Shown: positions 1,700 to 14,400 of the stretch, in pieces | Layout: each line of letters starts with the position of its first letter | How positions within the stretch are numbered: position 1 is the stretch's first letter | Virus record (IMG/VR): IMGVR_UViG_3300033757_000347 | Source of the DNA: a virus | Lineage: Duplodnaviria > Caudoviricetes | Reading direction: 5' to 3' (one strand) | Length of the DNA stretch: 64,000 bases | Program-made: the position numbers and the translations under genes | The notes under the pieces: model-generated | Database searches by the model: none | Told to the model about the DNA's origin: nothing | What the model saw: only the letters and a program-made list of their open reading frames with translations

Positions 1700-3835
1700 A
1701 TGGCAGGTTTATCGCATTTAAAGGACGTCTTAGACAAATACGGAAAAGACTTCGTCGACAACTTACTCAACAAGACGGTCATCGTAAACGAGAAGATGGA
1801 CGGAGCGTTTTTCGGTTTGATGAAGGACGATCATGGAAAGATAGAGTACTTCAAAAGAAACGGCCCAATATCGTACGTGGACAGAGTCCTTAGCAAGTAC
1901 TTTGAGCCTGCTATTTCCTACCTGGAAAGTAAGAAGAGCGAGATCGCTCCGAACATTCCGCCGAATTACTACTTCGGAATGGAATACTTTTCCGACAAAA
2001 AACCGCAGACCATATCCTACGACAACCTTCCGAAGAATCACTTGATCTTGAGTTACATACACATTCTCAAGAAAAACGGAGAGGTAAAGGAAACAATACA
2101 GAGCAGGGAAGAGCTCAACAAATGGGCAGACGTTTTAGGAATAGAACGACCTCCGATCATCTTCCAGGGCAAGCTAAGCCCAGAGCAAAAGAAGCAGATA
2201 CACGAATTCATATACACGCCGTTTGATGAGTTAGTAGAAAAATTCAAGACGACTTCTTTCACTAGGTACATAGTTTCAGTCCTCAACCCATCAATGGAAA
2301 AATCGTTCCTTCAGGATTCTTTAGACAAGGACATTGAGGGAATCGTTTTCAGGTTTTACGATGATTCGGCTAGAGGAGAAGAACCTGTGTTCTTGGCCAA
2401 GCTGATAGATCCTACCTTCCAGGAAGGAGCAAAGAAAAGATCGGCAGAAGATCGCAAGAAGAGCGATGATTACATCTGGATCATCGTGATCGACCTAATG
2501 AACTTCATCGAGCAGTATTCGGTTAGCGAGCTGAGAGAAATTCCTATGAAGGGCGAGACCTATGAGGAACGGTATGTGTCCCTGGTCAATCACATATACT
2601 TGGAATTCGTAAAGGAATTTGGCGAGAAGTACAGGGACTTAGACATTCAGATACCTGATTTTCTGCAAAGAGACGATTTCAACGTGAACTTCGGCCTCAT
2701 CGACAATCCTAGAGTAACATCGATGATCGAATCCAACCCTAATTTCAAGGAAATTTACAGGGTCTTCATCAACATGTTCAGAAAGAAAAAGATCAAGGTA
2801 AGTTCATCGTTCTTCACAAAAGAGATGAAAGAGAACCTTAACGACCAGATCGACAAAATTAGCAGAGTAATCATGGGAGATTCAATCTACGAAAATTACT
2901 TCCCAACGTTCAAAGAATTCGTCGGCGAAGAAAAGGATCCGGGCTACTTTGAGACATTCAAGCAGGTAGAGGATAGGAAAACTAAACCCGTAAACTTGAT
3001 CATCTCTGACTTTCAACCTATACACCCAGGACACATAAAATCAGCGCAGAGCTTGTTCAACGAGAACGGTCTTCCGTGCTTGTTAGTGTGCGTCCACCCA
3101 GGAAACACAAGCAAAGCTAGACCTTTCAAGAAAGAAACAGTCATAAACGGTCTGCAGAGACTTGCGAACGTTCACCGCAGTTTCATAGAAGGTTACGTTA
3201 TCGTTTCCGACGGAGAAGTGGAAAGCTTGCTAAAGACGATAAAGCCTAACTACGAACCCAACATCATAGCAGCCAACCGGAGTAGAATAAGAGACTTAGC
3301 TCTGCAGATAGAGCTTGCTAAGAAACGATCCAGAAACCTAAACTTGAAAAAGGACCTTAGGTTGATGGAACTTCCGTCCGCTGGCATAAAGGACGTCATA
3401 ATGAACACTGTCAAGAACGGAGATTACGCAGGATTCAAGTCAGCAGCTCCGCAGGAGATACACTCGGACTTTTACAGCATGAACCAGGACCTGATGGAGA
3501 AATTGAACGAATCACTTTCGCGGTTCAGTTCTCCAGGAATTTCGGTGATTGAGACCGACGAATCGTCTCAGTTGATCAACGAATCGATCGATCCCATCCT
3601 AAACGTTGAAACTGCAGAAGAGGACGATGTTCAGCAAGTAATAGTTCTATCCGAAAAGGACCAAGAGCTGTTAAAGGAAGCAAAGAAGTACGAAGAAGAG
3701 CGCAATCGCTCAATCGCAGAAGCTGTGAAAATAGCTAACGAACACCCAGAGGATCCTGGGCTATGGCCAAGTTACACTCAAATGACAAAGATGGGACCAG
3801 GTACTTCAGGTACTTCCGGAACAGCCCACACCTAA
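1700..3835 (+). CDS. ATP-dependent (RNA) ligase domain fused to HIGH-superfamily nucleotidyltransferase domain
   Basis: Ligase motifs I NEKMDG, III GMEYF, IV IEGIVFRF and V LAKLI. The C-terminal domain has FQPIHPGH (HxGH) and RPF. Confidence 0.7.
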   Translation: MAGLSHLKDVLDKYGKDFVDNLLNKTVIVNEKMDGAFFGLMKDDHGKIEYFKRNGPISYVDRVLSKYFEPAISYLESKKSEIAPNIPPNYYFGMEYFSDKKPQTISYDNLPKNHLILSYIHILKKNGEVKETIQSREELNKWADVLGIERPPIIFQGKLSPEQKKQIHEFIYTPFDELVEKFKTTSFTRYIVSVLNPSMEKSFLQDSLDKDIEGIVFRFYDDSARGEEPVFLAKLIDPTFQEGAKKRSAEDRKKSDDYIWIIVIDLMNFIEQYSVSELREIPMKGETYEERYVSLVNHIYLEFVKEFGEKYRDLDIQIPDFLQRDDFNVNFGLIDNPRVTSMIESNPNFKEIYRVFINMFRKKKIKVSSSFFTKEMKENLNDQIDKISRVIMGDSIYENYFPTFKEFVGEEKDPGYFETFKQVEDRKTKPVNLIISDFQPIHPGHIKSAQSLFNENGLPCLLVCVHPGNTSKARPFKKETVINGLQRLANVHRSFIEGYVIVSDGEVESLLKTIKPNYEPNIIAANRSRIRDLALQIELAKKRSRNLNLKKDLRLMELPSAGIKDVIMNTVKNGDYAGFKSAAPQEIHSDFYSMNQDLMEKLNESLSRFSSPGISVIETDESSQLINESIDPILNVETAEEDDVQQVIVLSEKDQELLKEAKKYEEERNRSIAEAVKIANEHPEDPGLWPSYTQMTKMGPGTSGTSGTAHT

Positions 3836-3842
3836 TAAAAGC

Positions 3843-3869
3843 AAAAAAGCTCCTTTCGGAGCTTTTTTT
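3843..3869. terminator. bidirectional intrinsic terminator
   Basis: AAAAAAGCTCC-TTTC-GGAGCTTTTTTT between convergent genes. Confidence 0.85.
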
Positions 3870-3889
3870 ATGCAGTTTTACACGAACCT

Positions 3890-5464
3890 TTAGAATAAAG
3901 TAGTGAACTCGCCGTTGATGAAATTCAGGTGCTGAGCCTTTCCGTCCTCGTGAACGATCACGTGAGACTGAAGCCAGCTGCTAGGGCCAATGTTGTAATT
4001 TACTCTGAGCTTGGTCGAAGTGCCGACTGCTAAAGCTCCATCCTTTCTTCCAGGAGAATGATAGTGACCAACAATGATCTTCGTGTTAAGGTTTCTGTAC
4101 TGAGACAGGGAACCGTACGTTCCGTTGGTTCCGATATCACCGTGCTGAGCAAGTTCCCAGTCCTTTATGATGAAACTATCGTTTCTATCGAGAGTTACGA
4201 AATTCGGAAATCTCTGCTTGATGATGTATGGAATGACTCCGTTCTTAGCTTTTCCGCTGAGAATCAGAGCTGCATACTCCATGTACTCTAGAGAATTCTT
4301 CAGAGTTCCGGCTTTTCTCCAATCTGAGGTCTGCAACCACCTATCGAGAAAATCGTCGTGATTTCCTCTGACAATTACTGTCGTAAAGTCGTTGCTGTCA
4401 AAGTCTTCCAGCCCTTCAAGAAGCGCCTCAACCTCGTCTTTCAGAGAATTTGTGCCGTTCATCTCTCGTTCGTACTGAACGAAAGGATTCTTCATGTCAT
4501 GGTGATTTATGGAAAGTCCATCGAACACATCGTGAAGAACGACGTGTTTTGGTTTCATCACGTTAAAGAAATCGAGAGTCTTGTCGATGATCTCCTGGTC
4601 GTGCTGGCCGAAGTGTATGTCACCGAATATGATGGCTGCTATCGTGTCCACCTTCTTTACTGTGCTGACCTTGAATTCTTCGTCGTACTCGACTTTGCTG
4701 TTCAGGTCGGTGAAGTTACCGTTATCGGTGGCAGTGATCTGCCTTACGAAGAAAGTATCATCGTCCTTGATCTCAATGATGACAAAACCTAACGTGTGGT
4801 GGAACTCGCCTTTCTTTCCAGATTTCGAATCTGTGTAGTTCTTTACCGTGCACGCGCCGGTCGTTACCATTATCTTAGGAAGGTTACCTTCCAGGACCGG
4901 AACGGTTTCCATCTGAACTTTTGGCGACCCGAACACGCAGGAGTGAACTCCTGTTAAACCACGAAGACCCGTCATCGGGTCAGTTGCAGTAGGTTGGATC
5001 TTGATGTCTGACATTATCCACATGTTCTTGTGGACGTTGTGCCGGTTAGCGTCGAGGTATTCCTCGATCTTTTCGTCCCACGTATCGTAATTCTTATCGG
5101 TGAATACTGATGTTGGGTTCTTGTACCGTCCTGCTATCACGTGAATGTCCGCGTTTATGTGCTCGGCGTACTTTTCGAGGTTAGAAACGAACGCTTCGTG
5201 AATCGGAGTGTCGTTCTGAGCCCAGGTGATGAGGAACCGCTTTTTAGTGCTCAACTGGCGTTCTTTTGCCTTTATGAGCTGAGGGGATTCTACCATAGCT
5301 TTTTCGGTTAAGCCTAACCGAGCCAACCACTTGGACACGGTTCGTTCCGATTTGTTTAGGTAGCTGCTTAATCTGTTCATTCGTTCATCCCAGCTGAGAG
5401 TAGGGTGCCAGTATATGGCTTTGATGTCTGAGATGTTCTCTTGGGTTAGATCTTCAAATTTCAT
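3890..5464 (-). CDS. T5 A1-like metallophosphoesterase/nuclease with N-terminal HTH
   Basis: Calcineurin-like motifs GDIHFG, HDVFDG, RGNHD, QHGD and GHYHS. The TTGACT..NY...K.G.K.EFHH block resembles the A1 family. Confidence 0.7.
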   Translation of the reverse strand: MKFEDLTQENISDIKAIYWHPTLSWDERMNRLSSYLNKSERTVSKWLARLGLTEKAMVESPQLIKAKERQLSTKKRFLITWAQNDTPIHEAFVSNLEKYAEHINADIHVIAGRYKNPTSVFTDKNYDTWDEKIEEYLDANRHNVHKNMWIMSDIKIQPTATDPMTGLRGLTGVHSCVFGSPKVQMETVPVLEGNLPKIMVTTGACTVKNYTDSKSGKKGEFHHTLGFVIIEIKDDDTFFVRQITATDNGNFTDLNSKVEYDEEFKVSTVKKVDTIAAIIFGDIHFGQHDQEIIDKTLDFFNVMKPKHVVLHDVFDGLSINHHDMKNPFVQYEREMNGTNSLKDEVEALLEGLEDFDSNDFTTVIVRGNHDDFLDRWLQTSDWRKAGTLKNSLEYMEYAALILSGKAKNGVIPYIIKQRFPNFVTLDRNDSFIIKDWELAQHGDIGTNGTYGSLSQYRNLNTKIIVGHYHSPGRKDGALAVGTSTKLRVNYNIGPSSWLQSHVIVHEDGKAQHLNFINGEFTTLF

Positions 5465-5567
5465 CAAATCTAGGTTATTACAGTTTAATGTATCTATATT
5501 TTACACGTATGCCATATAAAGTTTTGGGCACACTTTCTTCCAAGAATATCAGAATAAATAACCAAGT

Positions 5568-5753
5568 ATGGAAAAGACTCACCAGAATTACAAGAACTAC
5601 CGAGCAGGAAAAGAACCGCTTAAGAATGCAGTTCTGCAGCACCCAGAAGGAAACAGCGTTTACGATTACCTCAAGAGTAAAGTAAACCGGGATCTTTGGG
5701 TTATTCCGTTTGGCAGGTGGGAGAAGAAACAAAAAAAGCTCAGGTCAAGATGA
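5568..5753 (+). CDS. small basic hypothetical protein
   Basis: Follows an AATAAATA motif. Its stop overlaps the next start (ATGA). Confidence 0.55.
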   Translation: MEKTHQNYKNYRAGKEPLKNAVLQHPEGNSVYDYLKSKVNRDLWVIPFGRWEKKQKKLRSR

Positions 5754-6235
5754 TCGAAATCGAACAAATGCCGACTTTTCCGATAGAGCCGGAAGAAACC
5801 CAAGAAGTCGTAGCTGACGTTACAACTCCGCCAGCTGAGCAGGTAACCGAAGAAACCACAGTTGCTGAATTCATGCTATCGCTGTTTCAAATAGCCGATC
5901 AAGCGAAAATAATTCACCTGCAAACAGATTCTGACACCGAGCACCGTCACTTTGGCTTGTTCTACGACACGTTCACCGACCAGTTAGATGCTCTCATCGA
6001 GGGAATCGCTGGAAAGTACGGAGCCCAAACTCTTAAGTTTGGTCAAGCTCAGATCGTTCTGTACGACCGGGAAGAAGCGATTCAGATCTTCTTCGAAGTA
6101 GTTGACCAGACTTTGAGAATGAAGTTTGCTTCCCTGTTCGATAGGGAAGCGGATTCGGAACTGTACAACATGGTCGACGAGATGATCACTCTCAAGAACA
6201 AAGTGCAGTACCTTCTGCAGATGAAAAGAAACTAA
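5750..6235 (+). CDS. ferritin/Dps-like four-helix protein (DUF5856-like)
   Basis: HLQT...EHRHFG.FYD....QLD.LIE...GKYG pattern. The start was moved to ATG 5750, coupled to the upstream stop. Confidence 0.7.
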   Translation: MIEIEQMPTFPIEPEETQEVVADVTTPPAEQVTEETTVAEFMLSLFQIADQAKIIHLQTDSDTEHRHFGLFYDTFTDQLDALIEGIAGKYGAQTLKFGQAQIVLYDREEAIQIFFEVVDQTLRMKFASLFDREADSELYNMVDEMITLKNKVQYLLQMKRN

Positions 6236-6241
6236 TCGCGA

Positions 6242-7861
6242 ATGTTCAAAGTAAGAAAGTTTCAACAGTTCGAAAATTTGCTGCTGGAAGCAGACATCAT
6301 CAGGTTCGAAGATCAATTTTCTGGCATAAACCAGGATTTTCGTCACGGTTCAGGAAACGATAGTCAGGAAGAGGACGGCGATCCGAATGCGGAAGCTTGG
6401 AAGAGGTTAGATTACCTCATAGACATGCTTTTGGACAGAGGAATTGTTGACTTGGAACAGGCACTGAAGGATCCGATCTACCAGAAAGAATTTGGATCGG
6501 TTAGGGGAATGGAAATATCTACCGCTTACTTGGAGTACTGCCGAAAAAAGATACGCAGGCTCAGCATACAGCTGGACGAGGAATTCAAAAAAGAGGACCG
6601 TGACGTTGAAGCGATTCAGAGAATCGCAGCAGAACGGATCCAAGTAGCAGCAAGAGTTCAAGCTCTTGAAAGAATTTACGAAGCTTTCAAACTTTTGAGG
6701 CAGGAAGAGTTAGACAGGATAGCGGATGAAGTGCTTAAGAAAGTAGCTAGCATAAAGGATGAAGTTTCCTCGCAGAACGATAACACCATCGTGGAAGTAG
6801 GAAAGCTCATCCAGCCAGAAATGGCACAGATACTGGATTCTGACACTCAGCAGGAAGGAAAAGAACACAGCGCAGCTAAAGTGATAACCACTCTCATCGC
6901 GTTGGAAAAGGTTCTACCCTTTTACGGAGAAGAAACCAAAGCTTCTGCCGAAAAAGCAAAGGAAACTGTAGAGAAAACCATAAAGGATAAGATCGGAGAG
7001 GAACGGTACCAAACGCTGTACAGAACGATCCTATCCAACGACCAGGAGGTACAGATCCTCAAGAGAATACTGAACCTTCGACACCAGAACTTTACTAGCG
7101 AGCAAGATATTTTGAAGGAGATTGATAGCATCAAGATCTCGATAAACGGTCTGGAAGGAGTTCGAAACGGTCGCCCTCTGTCTAAACCGGAAGTCATAGA
7201 ATTCCTAAAAAAGACCCTCACCGAAGAAGCCAAGTACGTTCTAGAAAGAGCTAGGGAAAAGACAATAACTTTAAAAGACGCTAAGGGCATTCACTTCGAC
7301 TTTAGAACGAAGCTGAAACTTCACGAAGCGGTCGACCTTCCTGTGACAGGAAAACAGATAGCTGACGCTACCTGGCTGATGAAATTTAGGAAGAGATTCA
7401 CGTACATAATGAACCTTCTTCCGGTAGGCCAGACTCCGGTAACTCCAGCTGGACAAGCTTGGGCAAACCTAGGAAAGCAGACTCACAAGCTCTACGCTAT
7501 CGCTCTAAACAGCGCTGGCAAGTTCATCGGAAAGATGCTAAAGGGCCGCGAAGGTCAGATGAAAGGCGATGCAGTTACTCGACTGTTCATTCCGGACACG
7601 GGCGTTCTTGACGAACCTGGTCCGTTAGCGTCGAACGCTGTTTCGGAAGAAGTAGCTCCTGGAGTTTCGATGCAGGTCCCAGGTTCTATAGGTTCAATGG
7701 GCCCAATCGTTCCACCTACCGAAAATTCGATAGGCTCCGGAGATAATTTTAATCCAAAGAAGAAAAAGAAGAAAAGAAGAAGCGTTTACGAGGAAAGGAT
7801 GCAGATCATGAACTTCGACGCGTTCGTATCGAAAAATAACAGAATCGGAAATGGCATTTGA
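6242..7861 (+). CDS. hypothetical helical protein (possible virion protein)
   Basis: 539 aa ORF with N-terminal KFQQFENLLLE and C-terminal MNFDAFV motifs. Confidence 0.7.
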   Translation: MFKVRKFQQFENLLLEADIIRFEDQFSGINQDFRHGSGNDSQEEDGDPNAEAWKRLDYLIDMLLDRGIVDLEQALKDPIYQKEFGSVRGMEISTAYLEYCRKKIRRLSIQLDEEFKKEDRDVEAIQRIAAERIQVAARVQALERIYEAFKLLRQEELDRIADEVLKKVASIKDEVSSQNDNTIVEVGKLIQPEMAQILDSDTQQEGKEHSAAKVITTLIALEKVLPFYGEETKASAEKAKETVEKTIKDKIGEERYQTLYRTILSNDQEVQILKRILNLRHQNFTSEQDILKEIDSIKISINGLEGVRNGRPLSKPEVIEFLKKTLTEEAKYVLERAREKTITLKDAKGIHFDFRTKLKLHEAVDLPVTGKQIADATWLMKFRKRFTYIMNLLPVGQTPVTPAGQAWANLGKQTHKLYAIALNSAGKFIGKMLKGREGQMKGDAVTRLFIPDTGVLDEPGPLASNAVSEEVAPGVSMQVPGSIGSMGPIVPPTENSIGSGDNFNPKKKKKKRRSVYEERMQIMNFDAFVSKNNRIGNGI

Positions 7862-8564
7862 ACTCGGAGATAAAGTGATGGTCAGAGCAAACTCGGACGA
7901 GTTGGAAAGCGATCTCTTTCAAGCTATCGACGGAGTTCGTGCTGAGATAACTGAAATCTACTCTACCGACTACGAACCGGACGTTAAACGTTACGAAGTC
8001 ACTCTTGAGAATCCGGTGGAAATAAACGGGGAAAGATTGGCTGTCGTTCCGGGTTTGTACGAGGATAACTTGGAAAAAGCTGAAGGAAAGAAAAAACAGC
8101 TTTCGGAAAACAGAGCTGTTACTAAATTTGCACTGTTCGAAAACAAGATGGAAGAGTCTTCGTGGTATTACGGTTTAGCAGACTGTCACGGAATAGAATC
8201 GTTCATAAAGGAACCTGACGAAGCAAAGGACTGGACTGATTTTGAGGAACTGTTTACAGTTGGTGTTCTTTCGATCGATCCAACCGAACTTCCTGGGAAA
8301 AGAGCGTACAACACGCAGATCGGAATGATCATCAGACGAGCAAAAGCTAACATTCAAAGGTTTCCTGTTGTGTACAGAGCAAAGTTAAAGGGAAGCGATG
8401 CCATGGTAATCGACCGAATGCTAAACAAGGGACTGTACGAGGAAGCTCTGGTCTACCTTAAGGAAAAATCCGAGCACACTCAGTTGGCTAAGAGGCTGGG
8501 CGGAATGAACGCCGAACGTAATTGGGAAAAGATCCCTAACCCTGAGCTGGATCCAATGTATTAG
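7851..8564 (+). CDS. hypothetical protein with SH3-like N-terminus
   Basis: 237 aa ORF. The start FELGDKVMV resembles SH3/KOW folds, and there is an internal KFALFE motif. Confidence 0.6.
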   Translation: MAFELGDKVMVRANSDELESDLFQAIDGVRAEITEIYSTDYEPDVKRYEVTLENPVEINGERLAVVPGLYEDNLEKAEGKKKQLSENRAVTKFALFENKMEESSWYYGLADCHGIESFIKEPDEAKDWTDFEELFTVGVLSIDPTELPGKRAYNTQIGMIIRRAKANIQRFPVVYRAKLKGSDAMVIDRMLNKGLYEEALVYLKEKSEHTQLAKRLGGMNAERNWEKIPNPELDPMY

Positions 8565-8681
8565 GATCACCCAGAAATGATGCTCTTTTGAGTTAATGAT
8601 AACATAAGAACCTATTTTTAGGTTCACCTGAGTTCATCCTACCATTTGGAGGAAGGAAATCGAAAGACGCCGGCCTAGAAG

Positions 8682-8930
8682 CTAGGCGTTTTTTGCTTGG
8701 CCAGTTTTCCGGCTATAGTGAACTACCCACCCACGCCATAGGCGATGGGTTAGGCTTCTGACTAACGCACGAAAAGTTTTTAGATCAGTGGTGCTAACAA
8801 TTACAGGTCGTATCTGTCCAAACTTTTTGATGGACGTTTTTAACTTACTGAAATAATACGGATCTTCTTGTTTGTGCGTATTCAGTTGTATAGAATCTAT
8901 GGGTACATAAAGTAGTTTTGTCTCTATCAT
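8682..8930 (-). pseudogene. truncated ParB/Srx-like N-terminal fragment, read into the IS right end
   Basis: VPIDSIQLN...KLKTSIKKFGQIRPVIV resembles a ParB N-terminus. The DGxxR motif is missing, and the C-terminus is encoded by the IS right-end hairpin. Confidence 0.55.
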
Positions 8931-8943
8931 ATCTTTTCTGTTT

Positions 8944-8978
8944 ATCTACATTAGTAGAAATCTTAATGTGTTCCTAAC
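8944..8978 (-). CRISPR. solitary Cas12a (type V-A)-like direct repeat, no array
   Basis: Minus strand reads GTTAGGAACACATTAAGATTTCTACTAATGTAGAT (35 nt). It has a GT start and the ATTTCTACT-nnn-GTAGAT stem characteristic of Cas12a repeats. Only one copy was seen. Confidence 0.7.
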
Positions 8979-9117
8979 GTGAACTACCTATTGGCTAAAT
9001 ACCAATGGGCTTCGTGCTTCACAGCAACTTGCTTACTGCTCCGAAGAGTTAGAAGTCTTATTGTCGCTCCACACGTGTACTCGCAAGTCCCTTACGAGGT
9101 TTTAATGTCTTGTACTG
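8979..9117 (-). ncRNA. orphan TnpB-type omegaRNA (reRNA) scaffold
   Basis: The sequence ...GGGACTTGCGAGTACACGTGTGGAG...AATAAGAC...TGAAGCACGAAGCCCA...GTAGTTCAC resembles the 3' region of tnpB elements and sits directly behind a promoter. The 5' boundary is approximate. Confidence 0.6.
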
Positions 9118-9123
9118 ACAATG

Positions 9124-9155
9124 CAAATATACAACTTTTAATTTGAACTACCAAA
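9124..9155 (-). promoter_or_regulatory. Bacteroidota housekeeping-type promoter (-33/-7)
   Basis: TTTG-N20-TATATTTG on the minus strand matches the TTTG-N19-21-TAnnTTTG consensus. Confidence 0.75.
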
Positions 9156-9227
9156 TGTTTTTGTCGCTTACATCCCATAGGCTAAAGACCTATGGGTTTT
9201 ACGCTCCTTTCTATAAAAAAAGAATCT

Positions 9228-9746
9228 TTAGAAATTGAAGGTCTGTAACACATCCTGATAAAAACTTTCTAATTTTTTCTTGACTTCGTTAATCGGAACT
9301 ATTTTAGTACAATAAGAAGGATAGTCTGTCTCTTCGTCTTCCGTCCAACTAAAGACTGCGAACACAGTACTGCTTTTGTCATCATAATGCTCTAACATGT
9401 CCTTAAACTTTATGTTCTCACAACCATGTGTACGTAAAAATCTAGAAACCAATTTAATTTCTGTATCATCCGTTAAGTTTTTTGGTGTCCAAATAAAAAG
9501 TTTTTCAGAGGAAAGACGTGTATCTTGCCTTTCAAAGAGGAGGTGTATTAAAAGATTCAGTTGACTCCGAGACAAACTTTTGATTCTTGTAATTTGTACA
9601 TTTTTAAGTATGTATTCGTGTTTCAAACATTCCTCGGCTGTATCAAATTCAAATCCGTCCTCTGAAATGTATTTTGTAAATGTTTCTGAACCTACCTTTA
9701 CTGATTGTAAAGCGTATTTGTCTACTGTTTGTACAACTTCTTTCAT
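9228..9746 (-). CDS. hypothetical cargo protein (AT-rich)
   Basis: 172 aa ORF between two IS left ends. It has a YISEDGFEFDTAEECLKHE motif of a kind seen in small phage proteins. Confidence 0.7.
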   Translation of the reverse strand: MKEVVQTVDKYALQSVKVGSETFTKYISEDGFEFDTAEECLKHEYILKNVQITRIKSLSRSQLNLLIHLLFERQDTRLSSEKLFIWTPKNLTDDTEIKLVSRFLRTHGCENIKFKDMLEHYDDKSSTVFAVFSWTEDEETDYPSYCTKIVPINEVKKKLESFYQDVLQTFNF

Positions 9747-9894
9747 ATTTTTTGTTTTTTTATTCTAGCTTATTATACCTCAAATTTTATACTAAAGTAT
9801 TGTTTTTTTGTAAAATTTTTATATTCAAGGTTAATTACTATCTTTGTCGCTTACATCCCACAAACTAAAGATTTGTGGGTTTTACGCTCCGTAG

Positions 9895-9902
9895 TATAAA
9901 TA
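9895..9902 (+). promoter_or_regulatory. T4-like late promoter TATAAATA
   Basis: Exact T4 late consensus upstream of the baseplate cluster. 21 nt (9896-9916) are identical to 1105-1125. Confidence 0.7.
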
Positions 9903-9921
9903 ACAAAAATAGTCAACAGAG

Positions 9922-12039
9922 ATGGGCGGCGGTCCAGGTTTCAACAAACAATCAGCAAACACCGTAGCGAACGGCACTAACACGTGGTCGAGTAGTCAAA
10001 ATTCGTCGACTGTCGAGCTTCTAAAGGTTGAGCAGGCCTTTAGCGGAGTAAACTACTTGGAAGCACTATCCAAAAGAACTAAAGCTGAGCTGGGTCAGTA
10101 CTTGTCAGACGAAGCTCAAAACCAATCTGGCGGGTCTATCATATCGGCTGACACAGACTCAATATTCAATAAATTCTCCATCTTTAAGTACTCCAAGTTC
10201 ATAAACGGAGCAGCTTACCAGCCGGATGCTCATTTTATCGGTTACGCGGCAAAACAGAGCGGAGATCCTTACACCGACACCGTGAATCAAAATGCGGCCG
10301 ATGGATTGCAAGTATTGGTTGACAAGGATAAAACTAGTAAAGCAGCAGCAACTAATGCTAACCTGCAAGCTGCGTATCAGAAGGCTATCGACGATAATCT
10401 AAAGAGAATGCAGGCTCTAAAAAATTCTGCAAACAATTACGCGGTTAAGAATTACTCAGCTATCGCTAACCCGACTGCTAAAAATTTGATACAGTGGGCA
10501 AGCACTCAATCGATGGAAAGCGTTACCGGCTTTCAGCCGTACGCGATGACAGACTTCATGTTCTGCAAGAACTACGGAAAGATTCCTAACAACAGGTTAG
10601 TAACTCTTCGTAGGTACCCATTTCCTATCGATGATCTTATCAGAGCTCCAGGAAACCTAAACCCAATCCCAATTGCGCAAGCGGTAACTTGGTTCGGAGA
10701 AGGAACTGACAACGTTCTGTCGAACATAGGTTTCATGAACTGGGGATTGCGCTGGGAGACGGTAGGGCCTATTGATGATCCGCAGATACTAGAAGGAAAC
10801 GAAGTAACAGTTACCGATTTGATGAAAGTTTTCAAGGACATTCCGAAACTTCAGAAACTTGGCGAAAGGCTAGAAGCAGTTTACGTCGGTCTAAACGGAC
10901 AGGACGCGCAACTCACTCAGCTAAGCCGAGTCGAAGAAAAGCTACAAAAATACTCAAGGGAACTCTACACTCAGGGTCCTTACTGGAACAGGATATACGG
11001 TCCAGTGAACGTTGTGAACGCTTCTACCAGAAGAGCTAGGGGAATGCAGGATGGCTGGGACACGCCGTTCACGTTAAACTTTCATTATTCTTTCAGGTCT
11101 TTCAGCGGGTTGAGCCCAAAGATCGTTGCTCTGGACCTAATAGCAAGCTTTTTGAACTTAACTTACAACGATGCGACTTTCTTGGGCCAGTTAGCTAGGT
11201 ACTTTCCTAGGCTTGGCGTAAAATTCGACGAAACTACTACTCAGATGTTAGGAGAACTCTTAACTTCGTGGGGAACGGTGTTCAACGGTGACATCAACAC
11301 GATGATGAGTAAGATGGAAGCGGTCTTACAGTCAATACAAGCATCGGTTGGAGAAACGGTTAACAACATGGAGCAAGCAATAAAAAACGGAAAAGCTGGA
11401 GAAAAAGCGGAAGCCGCTCTAGTCAACACTTTTCAAGCAGGTACAGCTCTTGCTCTTGCGGATGCTATTCCAAACCTGATCTCCATCAAATCTGCCCTGT
11501 CAGACCGGCCTATCGGAGAATGGCACTTAGTAGTAGGAAACCCAATGAATCCGATCATGGTGATGGGAGACTTAGTCGTGTCGAACTGCATCCTAAAGTT
11601 CGACGAGGAAATGGGGCCTGACGATTTTCCGACCGGCTGCACGTTTACAATAAAACTCCAACAAGGAAAACCTAGGGATAAAGTGGCAATCGAGAGAATG
11701 TTTAACTTGGGAGAAGCTAAGCTGCTCTTCACCAAACTAAGAAATCCGTCGTCAGCTGACGATACGTTCGGAGAAACAAATAACACGAGGTTCAAACAGT
11801 TCTTTTCTACCAGCACAGGAGAAAAGGGAGCAAACGAACTAACGGATGACGACAAGCAAGCTATCCAGCAGCAGTTAGGAACGGGTTCCTTCGATCGTTA
11901 CAGAAACAGAATAAGAAAATCGTACGGGTACGCTCCGCAGATGAACGGCAAAAATCCAGTCTCAGGAGATTCGACGGTCGACCGGATGGACGATTCGTTG
12001 CTGTGGTTGTACTTCGATAAAGATTTGACTAAAACTTAA
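9922..12039 (+). CDS. putative baseplate/tail structural protein
   Basis: 705 aa, first gene of the baseplate cluster. The C-terminus (GNPMNP..MGDLVVSNC...DDFP...FTIKL) suggests a tube-initiator-like fold. Confidence 0.5.
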   Translation: MGGGPGFNKQSANTVANGTNTWSSSQNSSTVELLKVEQAFSGVNYLEALSKRTKAELGQYLSDEAQNQSGGSIISADTDSIFNKFSIFKYSKFINGAAYQPDAHFIGYAAKQSGDPYTDTVNQNAADGLQVLVDKDKTSKAAATNANLQAAYQKAIDDNLKRMQALKNSANNYAVKNYSAIANPTAKNLIQWASTQSMESVTGFQPYAMTDFMFCKNYGKIPNNRLVTLRRYPFPIDDLIRAPGNLNPIPIAQAVTWFGEGTDNVLSNIGFMNWGLRWETVGPIDDPQILEGNEVTVTDLMKVFKDIPKLQKLGERLEAVYVGLNGQDAQLTQLSRVEEKLQKYSRELYTQGPYWNRIYGPVNVVNASTRRARGMQDGWDTPFTLNFHYSFRSFSGLSPKIVALDLIASFLNLTYNDATFLGQLARYFPRLGVKFDETTTQMLGELLTSWGTVFNGDINTMMSKMEAVLQSIQASVGETVNNMEQAIKNGKAGEKAEAALVNTFQAGTALALADAIPNLISIKSALSDRPIGEWHLVVGNPMNPIMVMGDLVVSNCILKFDEEMGPDDFPTGCTFTIKLQQGKPRDKVAIERMFNLGEAKLLFTKLRNPSSADDTFGETNNTRFKQFFSTSTGEKGANELTDDDKQAIQQQLGTGSFDRYRNRIRKSYGYAPQMNGKNPVSGDSTVDRMDDSLLWLYFDKDLTKT

Positions 12040-12049
12040 CAGATGACGC

Positions 12050-12793
12050 ATGCTTAACTTAAGAACATTAATGAGTAAAACAAGCTTCACCAAGCTCAAC
12101 GGCGATACGATCGTCAATCTCGCGATGAGCACTGTGTCTTTTTTGGGTATCAGAGCTAACTCTGGGAAAGCTTACGTCGTTACGGAAGAAACTGCAATGA
12201 GGCCTGACCTGATCGCTAGCTATTTTTACCAGGACCCTGGCTACTTGGACCTCCTTTTGAAGTACAACGGGTACCCTAACCCGTTTGCTCTGGACGTTGG
12301 AGACATTATCCGAATACCGTCTATGGCTACTCTTTCTAAATTTGGAAGCACCGGAAAAGTAAACGATCCTAAACTCATGGCAGTTAGAAAGAAGTACACC
12401 AACTTGGTCATGGCTCCTAGGTCAAGGAAAGACCAGGTTAGGATGAACTACTTGCTCCAGAAAGGAACCGCTATCAATTCGAACTTAGCCAAGTTGAACG
12501 CGCTCCTTCAGAGCGGGAATCTGTCGAGCTTGAGCTTGTCAGCTTTAAGTTCGCAAATATCCAACATCATGCAGGGCGGGAACTTCTCAGGAACCGGCCC
12601 GCTTACCTCAGCTTACCAAGCAGGCGCTAGCGCTCCGGTACCGCCGAACATTGCTCTCGACAGCGGAGTAAAGATACAGAACGGAAAGATCCTGTTCGGG
12701 TCAGACGTTACTTCCGTAAAGAAGGAAGATTGCACCGAGCCTATTTCCAGAACAAAGCTGAAAGAAACTCTTCTAAAAAATAGGCTGGCATAA
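12050..12793 (+). CDS. baseplate wedge protein, gp53/LysM-like
   Basis: RPDLIASYFY...LLLKYNGYPNPFALDVGDIIRIP. Confidence 0.75.
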   Translation: MLNLRTLMSKTSFTKLNGDTIVNLAMSTVSFLGIRANSGKAYVVTEETAMRPDLIASYFYQDPGYLDLLLKYNGYPNPFALDVGDIIRIPSMATLSKFGSTGKVNDPKLMAVRKKYTNLVMAPRSRKDQVRMNYLLQKGTAINSNLAKLNALLQSGNLSSLSLSALSSQISNIMQGGNFSGTGPLTSAYQAGASAPVPPNIALDSGVKIQNGKILFGSDVTSVKKEDCTEPISRTKLKETLLKNRLA

Positions 12794-14400
12794 TGGCACA
12801 GGAGAACAGAGTAACGGTAAGATTTACGCCGACTATCACACCGACCAGAATCGAATTAGCTGATTTCGAAAGCAGCTTGAGCGAGGAGGATCGCAGGAAA
12901 CTGTTCGATGGAACGTACAGCAAGTTCAAGCAGAGAAGAGGTTTTTCTACTCCCCTAGTAATGATAGGAAAGGTTAAGATCCCGCCGGAAAAGATAAAAG
13001 CTTTGCACGTTCGTCAGGAAGATTTTACTCCGACGATATCTGTCACTTTCGTGGACGATGGTCACATTTTCAGCGCTAGGGGTTTTCCTCTGTCCAACAT
13101 CATAGTGAGCGTGTTCGTCAAGTCAACAGTTAAGAAGTTAAAATCGCTGTCTGCTGACTTTCTGATAAACGCGGTTTCATCCATGCCTATTCCTGGAACA
13201 GAAGCAGTTGTGTACACTTTCTCAGGAGAAATGCTAATTCCGACTCTGTACGGAAATTACTCAAAGTCCTACAGAAACATGACTTCGTTGGAAACTCTAG
13301 CTAAGGTAGCAGAAGAGCTCCAGTTAGGATTTGCTGACAACCAGGCGGAAGGAACTTCCGATGCTATGACTTGGATCATGCCGAACTACACGTACAAGGA
13401 GTTCATAACTCAAGTTTCGAAGTACGCTTACAAGGATGACGGGAACTTCTTCGACTGTTTCATCGATAGGTACTACGTGCTCAACTTCATAAACGTCGAA
13501 AAGCAGTTCGCTAGGGACGATGAAGTGGACACCGGGTACATAGCTATAGGACAGACGGAAATGAACAAGGATAGGTTCGATCCGGAAGAAGAGGAGAAAG
13601 AGGATGAGGTTGAAGTGCCGATAATCCTAACCAACTACCCTGAGGCCAGAGCATCCGAGTTCTACATCACCGATTACTCGCTTATGAGCAACCACGGTGA
13701 CATACTCAGAAACAATGCTATTCGCCGGTACATTTACTGGTACGATCACGGATCGGGAAAGGGCGAAGATTCTGAACCTAGGAAGATAGAGGAAATCATT
13801 GATGCTGGAAAGCCTAGCACTTACCCGTTCGAACAGTACGAACAGTTCAGGCTGCACTTCTTGGAACCGCTAACTTCAACGGTCACGAACGACGGAAAGA
13901 AACCTCACACGGTCGAGATACCTGAGTACTTAAGTAACTCAGATAACGATGATGATGGACCAGCAGTAGCAACCGGAGTGTGGTCCGGAATAGATTACGG
14001 TAACGCTCACCCATCTTACAAGTTTGCAGAACTCTTGAACTATCACAATTGGCTGGAAACTGAGAAAAATTTGCTCTTAGTAACGCTGAACGGGTTCAGC
14101 GCAAACGTTATCAGAGGAAGCCGAGTAAAGGTTGAAATTTACATGGACAAAGCATCTGCTATGCTTGGAAGAACGATGGCCAGCGACCAAGAAACGGAAG
14201 TTGACTTGGACGACATCGACACTGGAATACCAAGGATCGACGATCTTCCTCAGGGAGCTATTAGAGATAAAGCTCTGAGCGATTTTTACTACGTAAAATC
14301 GATCTCTTACTCGTACATTGACGGCGAATTTTCGACCAAACTAACCCTAGCTAGAAGGCACTGGTTGTTGCCGTTAGCTAAAAAAGACGTAAAAGTGTAA
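12793..14400 (+). CDS. putative baseplate hub protein (gp27-like)
   Basis: 535 aa between gp53-like and gp5-like genes. The C-terminus FYYVKSISYSY...FSTKLTLARR is typical of hub proteins. Confidence 0.55.
   Translation: MAQENRVTVRFTPTITPTRIELADFESSLSEEDRRKLFDGTYSKFKQRRGFSTPLVMIGKVKIPPEKIKALHVRQEDFTPTISVTFVDDGHIFSARGFPLSNIIVSVFVKSTVKKLKSLSADFLINAVSSMPIPGTEAVVYTFSGEMLIPTLYGNYSKSYRNMTSLETLAKVAEELQLGFADNQAEGTSDAMTWIMPNYTYKEFITQVSKYAYKDDGNFFDCFIDRYYVLNFINVEKQFARDDEVDTGYIAIGQTEMNKDRFDPEEEEKEDEVEVPIILTNYPEARASEFYITDYSLMSNHGDILRNNAIRRYIYWYDHGSGKGEDSEPRKIEEIIDAGKPSTYPFEQYEQFRLHFLEPLTSTVTNDGKKPHTVEIPEYLSNSDNDDDGPAVATGVWSGIDYGNAHPSYKFAELLNYHNWLETEKNLLLVTLNGFSANVIRGSRVKVEIYMDKASAMLGRTMASDQETEVDLDDIDTGIPRIDDLPQGAIRDKALSDFYYVKSISYSYIDGEFSTKLTLARRHWLLPLAKKDVKV

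Follow-up and report, generated by a model that had tools for sequence, protein, structure and literature searches.

Positions 8718-9895 of the window, as the whole analysed stretch of 64,000 nucleotides is called here, are best explained as two nested non-autonomous elements of the IS200/IS605 family in the genome of a large anaerobic-digester phage. The inner one is a mini element that carries a promoter and an omegaRNA and lies within DNA captured by the outer one, a composite whose two ends derive from different IS lineages. TnpA and TnpB would be supplied to both in trans, and the Cas12a-like 35-mer that directly follows the inner element would be merely its flank. Taken as a whole, this explanation is held to be probable.

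The window corresponds to bases 6941-70940, minus strand, of a virus record of 174,479 bp, whose completeness is estimated at 67%, and the metagenome runs containing this record come from anaerobic digester and wastewater samples. An earlier note on this DNA had listed, on the minus strand, an IS200/IS605 left end, a promoter, an omegaRNA-like scaffold, a right end and, with zero gap, a solitary Cas12a repeat. All of these were found there, almost base for base (Table 1). A blastn search of 8400-10000 against GenBank phages returned no match.

Table 1. Features of the two nested elements and of the adjoining DNA, by position in the window
Feature	Position	Strand	Basis
Outer TTTAT target motif (TAM), just outside the outer element	9896-9900	-	L080 junction
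Outer composite IS605-type element, 1,178 bp	8718-9895	-	blastn against L080
Outer left-end module LE', hairpin at about 9857-9879	9772-9895	-	88% identical to the inner left end
ORF172, cargo gene	9228-9746	-	Homologs in IS-free phage loci
Inner TTTAT target motif	9213-9217	-	In L122, the empty allele, TTTAT is directly followed by the 35-mer homolog
Inner tnpB-less element of 234 bp (PATE-like), with left end, promoter, omegaRNA and right end	8979-9212	-	Exact borders, missing from L122; other copies
Inner left end, hairpin 9174-9196	9167-9212	-	34 nt (9167-9200) identical to the full tnpA+tnpB element
Bacteroidota-type promoter, TTTG + 20 nt + TATATTTG -7 box (9124-9131)	9124-9155	-	Pattern match and homology to tnpB promoters
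omegaRNA scaffold, including right-end hairpin and TTCAC end	8979-9107	-	Covariance model R1 and covariation
GGTAGTTCAC, scaffold terminus	8979-8988	-	Sequence
35-mer, zero gap after the inner right end	8944-8978	-	Sequence
Guide by position, first 16 nt past the right end, also the 5' part of the 35-mer	8963-8978	-	Position
19-nt Cas12a-type handle, stem UCUAC/GUAGA, loop UAAU	8944-8962	-	Consensus and V-A array matches
ORF82, first 56 codons of a captured ParB_N gene plus read-through into the right-end module	8682-8930	-	Weak ParB_N matches; tblastn
Outer right-end module RE'', hairpin and GGTAGTTCAC	8718-8761	-	42/44 nt match the L110 right end (our count)

The inner mini element and its copies

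The inner unit had been described as a protein-free IS200/IS605 derivative with an omegaRNA, and this is borne out by its ends, by an empty site, by covariance modelling and by covariation. At 234 bp it is too short for any tnpA or tnpB gene. Its right-end hairpin and GGTAGTTCAC are held in common with a tnpA/tnpB element of the same record, and GGTAGTTCAC occurs five times in the genome against about 0.3 occurrences expected (reckoned from 4^10). The metagenome contig L122 is colinear with the window save for the absence of 8979-9212, which provides a precise empty site and exact borders; TTTAT is joined there directly to the right flank, and the insertion left no target-site duplication. TTTAT also stands at at least eight independent left-end junctions of the IS family, and its assignment as the target motif is confirmed by these junctions together with the empty sites.

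An exact 32-mer of the scaffold was found in seven other viral contigs (L147-L153), all of them tnpB-less units of 234-239 bp, and this scaffold variant is tnpB-less in all eight known copies. At least five copies show the same full order of parts after a TTTAT, and at least one is without the left-end hairpin. The flank past the right end differs in all six copies where it is readable, none of these flanks being CRISPR-repeat-like, and a wastewater metagenome contig holds a complete mini element with yet another flank. In the metagenome runs, contig depth over the element core is greater than that of the phage.

These copies and the empty site bear directly on the junction with the 35-mer, for which chance insertion at a TTTAT site had been entered as a caveat. 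The caveat is now the favoured account, with L122 as the empty allele and with unrelated flanks in the other copies. Because a TTTAT happened to precede the 35-mer, as the empty site in L122 reveals, the zero-gap fusion is a normal outcome of insertion, and the joining of an omegaRNA to a Cas12a-like repeat is most likely an accident of insertion.

A quite different significance of this junction was also considered, namely that it preserves the moment at which an omegaRNA and a CRISPR repeat came together, as an evolutionary intermediate on the way to type V systems. Transposon insertion beside a pre-existing array is indeed one of the proposed routes (PMC10691335), and the geometry here is that of an omegaRNA followed by a repeat-like unit. 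But the unit contains no effector gene or other nuclease, no array and no second repeat, and a scaffold followed by at least two repeats, or one linked to a nuclease, occurs in none of the eight copies. The repeat-like unit is moreover of the highly derived V-A type and unrelated to the scaffold, while ordinary TTTAT targeting explains the insertion. The notion of a snapshot of Cas12 origins thus finds no support here and is hardly credible.

The omegaRNA scaffold

Scoring with omegaRNA covariance models had been proposed in the earlier note as a check of the scaffold. The comparison set consisted of the 3' ends of diverged tnpB genes, whose proteins are about 70-99% identical to the resident TnpB. 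The window scaffold aligns over its full length to these tnpB 3' ends and retains the conserved single-stranded motifs, and the common structure given by RNAalifold has compensatory changes in 16 of its 34 pairs. A covariance model (R1), built from nine TnpB-linked sequences with the window sequence left out, matched 8979-9107 with 91.1 bits (E 7e-16) at full length, over model positions 1-123. Over the whole record the model found two sites only, this one and the tnpB-linked one. Covariation was assessed in 16 sequences, in which 97.9% of cells are paired and double changes occur in 19 of 35 pairs, against 32-38% of cells paired in slid controls, the alignment having been fitted to the model so that the structure is somewhat favoured in these figures.

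Folded as a single sequence, the scaffold has an MFE no better than that of shuffles (z = -1.0), so the structure becomes visible only by comparative analysis. Rfam gave no match at the gathering threshold in the window, and nothing relevant at E values up to 10 in 8650-9950. As judged by sequence and comparative structure, 8979-9107 is a genuine omegaRNA. The only RNA-library contigs over the element cover 9004-9184; they reach upstream of the start predicted at about 9112-9118 and may be DNA, and so provide no evidence for the proposed transcript.

The promoter

The bipartite pattern TTTG-N20-TATATTTG is by itself not enriched in the window (2 found against 1.3 expected); it is homology to tnpB promoters that supports its reading as a promoter. 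Six diverged tnpB loci, the resident tnpB among them, were compared for the -7 box: in five of the six, TATATTTG with a C behind it stands 3-7 nt ahead of the tnpB start codon, and in L110 the distance is 15 nt. The inner element and the other mini-element copies retain this -7 box, while the spacer that separates it from the left end varies. Because of this retained tnpB box, the mini element looks like a tnpB element minus its reading frame, with the tnpB promoter now directly before the omegaRNA scaffold.

The TATATTTG box is of the Bacteroidota -7 type, which suggests Bacteroidota as the host phylum. The full IS was absent from three Bacteroidota genomes and from 400 sampled Bacteroidota genomes, a result that is uninformative on the host.

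An autonomous relative in the same record

The virus record also contains, 14 kb beyond the window, a complete IS605-type element (L078:787-2528), which is ended by one of the GGTAGTTCAC copies. It encodes a Y1 transposase of 134 aa (Y1_Tnp, 1e-34; L078:2075-2479) and, divergent to this tnpA, a TnpB of 401 aa with OrfB_IS605, TNB and HTH domains (L078:792-1997, minus strand), an arrangement as in IS605. Outside the inner element, the record holds one Y1_Tnp and one TnpB. Other viral contigs carry near-identical copies of the full IS (98-99% protein identity), which occupy numerous different positions.

The earlier statement that tnpB is missing is accordingly true of the window, but a complete pair of tnpA and tnpB is present in the same record. 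The genome-wide search for tnpB that had been advised led to this full element, whose left end is identical to the inner one over 34 nt, and the view that any effector must act in trans is supported. The inner scaffold is about 80% identical to the scaffold of the resident TnpB. Because no tnpB linked to exactly this scaffold variant was found, we can only infer that the inner scaffold is compatible with the resident TnpB.

The outer composite element and its cargo

The outer element was delimited by comparison with L080, a close phage relative of 88% nucleotide identity, in which the counterparts of window 3000-8717 and 9896-12996 are contiguous at 5948|5949. At this junction TTTAT runs directly into the right flank, with 8718-9895 absent and no duplication. 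Because L080 is entirely without 8718-9895 and the TTTAT junction is clean, the whole 1,178 bp represents one insertion. Its three parts are a left-end module of 124 bp, about 1 kb of captured DNA and a right-end module of 44 bp. The changes in the hairpin stem of LE' relative to the inner left end are compensatory. RE'' resembles the right end of a different tnpB lineage, and contigs from the wastewater runs continue from RE'' (with loose ends at 8758) into this L110-type tnpB lineage.

The captured DNA is 97% identical to a native phage locus, L119, over 9771-9213 and 8963-8762, with the mini element nested within it; the homology to L119 begins at 9771. The figure of 97% applies likewise to the IS-free loci L120 and L121. 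A resemblance of the inner promoter region to the L119 intergenic region was also considered and was rejected as not significant (56/500 shuffles).

Native loci without IS ends show where the cargo comes from, the gene order there being QueD, QueC, ORF172 and a full ParB_N gene of 164 aa. The ORF172 protein is 95% identical in L119-L121, and 82-95% identical over the metagenome contigs L119-L122. There are also 29 distant homologs, and those in L123-L125 lie in tightly packed operons of small genes with no repeat-like unit downstream. ORF172 has no Pfam or PHROG match; its AF2 model has a pLDDT of 85, and searches of the PDB by sequence and with Foldseek, solved AcrVA proteins included, gave no match. 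Protein scans of viral contigs with ORF172 and ParB_N yielded no relatives; the relatives named here came from a large protein collection. ORF82 has weak ParB_N matches, with tblastn similarity over residues 1-66, and its DNA homology stops at 8762, whereas L119 and L122 hold the full-length gene of 164 aa; ORF82 is probably a non-functional ParB_N fragment. In our reconstruction of the order of events, the leftover ends of two IS copies would have bracketed foreign phage DNA, which was then moved as a unit.

Proposed mechanism

Both elements are demonstrably mobile. The outer one inserted 3' of a TTTAT between structural genes, its left and right modules, from two IS lineages, bracketing about 1 kb that comprises ORF172, an intergenic stretch and 56 codons of ParB_N. 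The inner one inserted 3' of a TTTAT within this captured DNA. According to the preferred explanation, both would be moved as single strands by TnpA, the Y1 transposase of the full element. A compatible TnpB acting in trans would load the RNA of the mini element, with the 16-20 nt past the right end as its guide, and the resulting complex may cut only the mini-element-free allele, in which TTTAT is followed by the flank. Cleavage of this empty allele would favour retention of the mini element, or its homing during co-infection. That the flank beyond the right end forms the TnpB guide is established TnpB biology (PMC10055086), and the literature describes both standalone omegaRNAs and PATEs as partners of a TnpB supplied in trans (PMC10691335, PMC10055086). 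No second target with TTTAT and the guide was found in the assembled genome.

The 35-mer as a candidate Cas12a repeat

The handle at the 3' end of the 35-mer agrees with the consensus TTTCTACT-N3-GTAGAT without a mismatch, and likewise with a pattern of AUUUCUACU, a loop of 3-5 nt, GUAGAU and a 5-bp stem. V-A arrays at nine loci from eight genomes, with 2-39 repeats at a spacing of 62-66 nt, contain exact copies of its last 18 nt (8944-8961); these genomes are from Granulicatella, Kaiserbacteria, Saccharibacteria, Jingyaoa and Prevotellaceae MAGs. The identity reaches the 3' 21 nt of the 35-mer, that is, the handle and the two preceding bases, in the repeat of a Kaiserbacteria MAG. By contrast, ungapped comparison of the 5' 17 nt with same-handle repeats gives just 7-8 identities, and the exact 35-mer is absent from the viral contig and genome contig collections. 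Of the claim that the 35-mer is a V-A repeat, the part concerning its last 21 nt thus holds, but none of the collections searched contains the full 35-mer.

By chance, the handle consensus should turn up 0.002 times in the 174-kb genome and about 190 times when 16 Gb are scanned, and because of the latter number the match alone is no proof. The 18-nt handle was found in 28 viral contigs, where most instances look like chance occurrences in coding sequence.

The position of the guide within a V-A-like sequence also allows a reading in which the omegaRNA serves as a weapon, directing TnpB against the type V-A repeats of the host and so destroying the array. The guide does form the 5' part of such a sequence, whose 5' half loosely resembles a Granulicatella repeat. 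TnpB, however, needs TTTAT directly 5' of its target, and array repeats follow the ends of spacers, so that they would have this motif by chance only. Besides the absence of the exact 35-mer from every genome and viral contig searched, the part that acts as guide is ancestral intergenic sequence of the phage, and all other copies of the element carry unrelated guides. An omegaRNA aimed at host CRISPR repeats is therefore not supported, and such a role is very improbable.

Origin of the handle

In 13 related loci, falling into three allele types, a small ORF of 40-43 aa (ending in EILKM and a stop) has its final codons at the position of the handle, and its C-terminal residues are kept through synonymous and conservative codon changes. 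The handle-like version exists only in the window and in L122, and in L122 it carries two mismatches, at the stem and at the last base. The handle is consequently not conserved as a unit in related phages. Because its place is a small-ORF end in the 13 loci and the handle version is confined to the window and L122, the handle is, by this comparison of alleles, a derived and unconserved state in the remnant of a coding sequence. In L119, the same TTTAT is directly followed by a sequence that agrees with the start of the 35-mer at nine of 12 nt. The 35-mer, on these alignments, predates the insertion and is part of the captured phage DNA, not a sequence carried in by the mini element. A transcript designed for dual use by TnpB and Cas12a is not supported.

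The window and L119 differ by three substitutions and one indel inside the 18-nt handle, although their flanks are 97% identical; a binomial estimate of our own, at 3% divergence, gives P of about 0.002. The window further shares the derived handle with L122, though the flanks of L122 are just 88-93% identical. Neutral drift fits these clustered changes poorly. Because the changes cluster relative to L119 and the derived version is held in common with the more diverged L122, the pattern points to recombination or selection at the handle site, and a Cas12a mimic that was selected for or acquired is conceivable.

The main alternative is that 8944-8962 is a working mimic of the Cas12a handle and acts as an RNA anti-CRISPR, either as a decoy of the Racr type or as a regulator of the Cracr/CreR type. 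A precursor would be transcribed from the promoter of the mini element or as part of the ORF172 operon, and Cas12a would cut it 5' of the handle and be titrated or misdirected. Consistent with such a role, the 3' 21 nt are those of bona fide V-A repeats with the stem-loop intact, the handle is solitary and intergenic in a phage, the changes that created it are clustered well above the 3% divergence of the flanks, and two diverged backgrounds, the window and L122, share this derived allele. Precedents exist as well, since the solitary viral V-A repeats RacrVA1-3 are experimentally validated inhibitors (PMC10651486) and CracrVA1 needs just the handle part of roughly 20 nt (bioRxiv 10.1101/2024.10.29.618823).

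Against it stand the number of chance matches at the size of the scan and the lack of conservation already described. The native allele has neither a terminator nor a dedicated promoter, and no terminator was found after the handle in the window. The 5' half of the 35-mer is ancestral intergenic DNA and not derived from a repeat, and ORF172 is unlike any solved Acr. There is no array, and a cas_Cpf1 family search of the record detected no cas12a, a search in which the control genomes were equally silent. For the spacer-like stretch, two seed matches with a TTTV PAM, of 8-9 nt, were found in the examined loci, neither of them beside cas12a; an RNA of the Cracr/CreR type would be expected to show at least 9 PAM-proximal matches to a cas promoter. 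An RNA anti-CRISPR is on balance doubtful, though it deserves to be kept in view; the handle is most likely a perfect one without a demonstrated role.

A bolder combination can be conceived, in which the handle is a newly evolved Cas12a mimic from the remnant of the small ORF, was spread between phages by the composite element and is driven by the omegaRNA promoter, so that one transcript serves two RNA-guided proteins. Were this true, Cas12a cleavage at 8962/8963, 5' of the handle, would yield two RNAs, a decoy crRNA and an omegaRNA whose guide measures exactly 16 nt. The combination as a whole is considered improbable.

Implications

The nested elements with a flanking 35-mer, as preferred here, are of use beyond the junction itself. 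They define a well-bounded family of promoter-plus-omegaRNA mini elements among phages, for which there are a workable covariance model, TTTAT as a defined motif and a TnpB in the same phage. They also indicate that foreign phage DNA, here about 1 kb, can be carried into a region of structural genes by ends that belong to two IS605 lineages, and gene exchange between phages by a composite element has seldom been documented for the IS605-type family. The handle, in turn, calls for caution: because a perfect Cas12a handle can lie where most relatives have the end of a coding gene, calls of lone repeats in phages need comparison of the relatives. If the handle does bind Cas12a, the origin of an RNA anti-CRISPR could be followed here one mutation at a time, which is seldom possible.

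Comparison with known systems

Two groups of Cas12a-related RNAs resemble the 35-mer. Like RacrVA1-3, the viral solitary repeat units (SRUs) of Camara-Wilpert et al. 2023 (PMC10651486), it is a lone intergenic repeat-like unit of a phage with a V-A handle and without cas genes nearby. In contrast to RacrVA1-3, just its 3' 21 nt match known repeats, and it is unconserved and derived from the end of a small ORF; by our estimate, its exact core of 18 nt may miss the SRUFinder criteria of at least 90% repeat coverage and 41.1 bits. CracrVA1 and the bacterial CreR (Liu et al., bioRxiv 10.1101/2024.10.29.618823) are likewise degenerate single repeats that keep a handle of roughly 20 nt followed by a spacer-like stretch, and processing of the window sequence by Cas12a would similarly leave a 19-nt handle and a guide. 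Unlike in CracrVA1 and CreR, no terminator lies past the spacer-like part here, and the seed matches of 8-9 nt are not by cas12a.

The transposition features are those of IS605, IS608 and ISDra2, with insertion of the peel-and-paste style 3' of a short motif, no target duplication, hairpin ends and an omegaRNA that overlaps the 3' end of tnpB. The present elements differ from these in that the target motif is TTTAT, that both elements of the window are without tnpA and tnpB, and that the outer one holds about 1 kb of foreign phage DNA between the ends of two lineages.

The closest likeness is to the PATE-like and standalone omegaRNAs of OMEGA systems, such as the ISGst families of Geobacillus stearothermophilus (PMC10691335, PMC10055086). 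As in these, there is no protein gene, the ends are subterminal hairpins, the omegaRNA is kept at the right end, effector and transposase come in trans from a related element of the same genome, and multiple copies exist with different flanks. What sets the present element apart from them is its occurrence in phage genomes, whose hosts are apparently Bacteroidota, the direct fusion of a tnpB promoter box to the scaffold, conserved across copies, the restriction of the scaffold variant to tnpB-less copies and the nesting in a second element that carries cargo. In conclusion, the object is another standalone omegaRNA element of a known class, nested in an unusual cargo-carrying composite.

Further copies and remnants of the IS element

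The virus carries a complete IS605-type element, located outside the window, whose tnpA and tnpB genes are divergently oriented. Its left end adjoins a 303-aa ORF; the matches of this ORF to the Mom family and to Vsr-like proteins are weak, both being under the Pfam cut-offs. A third right end is cut off by a contig end, and its hairpin is identical, except for one loop base, to that in the outer element's left end, so the unassembled part of the phage genome probably holds another IS copy. In several other phage contigs the IS survives as 5'-truncated remnants that retain hardly anything beyond the right end and its omegaRNA region. Next to the right flank of the outer element, a hairpin followed by a T run is kept in L080, a close relative phage lacking that element; it is likely the terminator of the convergent gene.

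Coordinates of the features
Feature	Location	Genome position
Complete IS605-type element, tnpA (134 aa), tnpB (401 aa)	L078:787-2528	75786-77527
Third right end with hairpin	L079:2927-2980	174426-174479
5'-truncated IS remnants	L113:2430-2850; L116:2330-2461; L117:2540-2664; L118:2557-2682	
G+C-rich hairpin, then T run, between outer element and convergent gene (7851-8564)	window 8650-8700	
QueD (PTPS) and QueC genes	L119:49-1484; L122:193-1628	
Junction 5' of ParB_N gene	L119:3520-3745; L127:8060-8240; L141:1330-1500	
Solitary 18-nt V-A handles	L056:2074-2091; L059:6075-6092	

The ParB_N locus of donor-type phages

The junction upstream of ParB_N is a mosaic hot spot with at least five allele types, in which ORF172 is full, truncated or absent; in three of these types, what is common is limited to the final 17 codons of an ORF of 40-43 aa. 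Since QueD and QueC genes adjoin ORF172 and ParB_N in the IS-free donor-type phages, a 7-deazaguanine DNA-modification module is suggested there; neither gene was found in the assembled part of the window's phage. A phage-type QueC/ParB_N module also occurs on a 73.6-kb contig (L142; GCA_038874555.1, JAVZCD010000004.1) filed under a Nitrososphaeria archaeon MAG; it is probably a phage contig that was binned there wrongly.

Solitary V-A handles in Ruminococcus

Two solitary copies of the 18-nt V-A handle sequence seen in the window lie in one Ruminococcus MAG, each preceded by a near-identical 20-nt stretch, and no CRISPR array was found near them within the 8 kb examined. These solitary handles could be CreR-like regulatory units.
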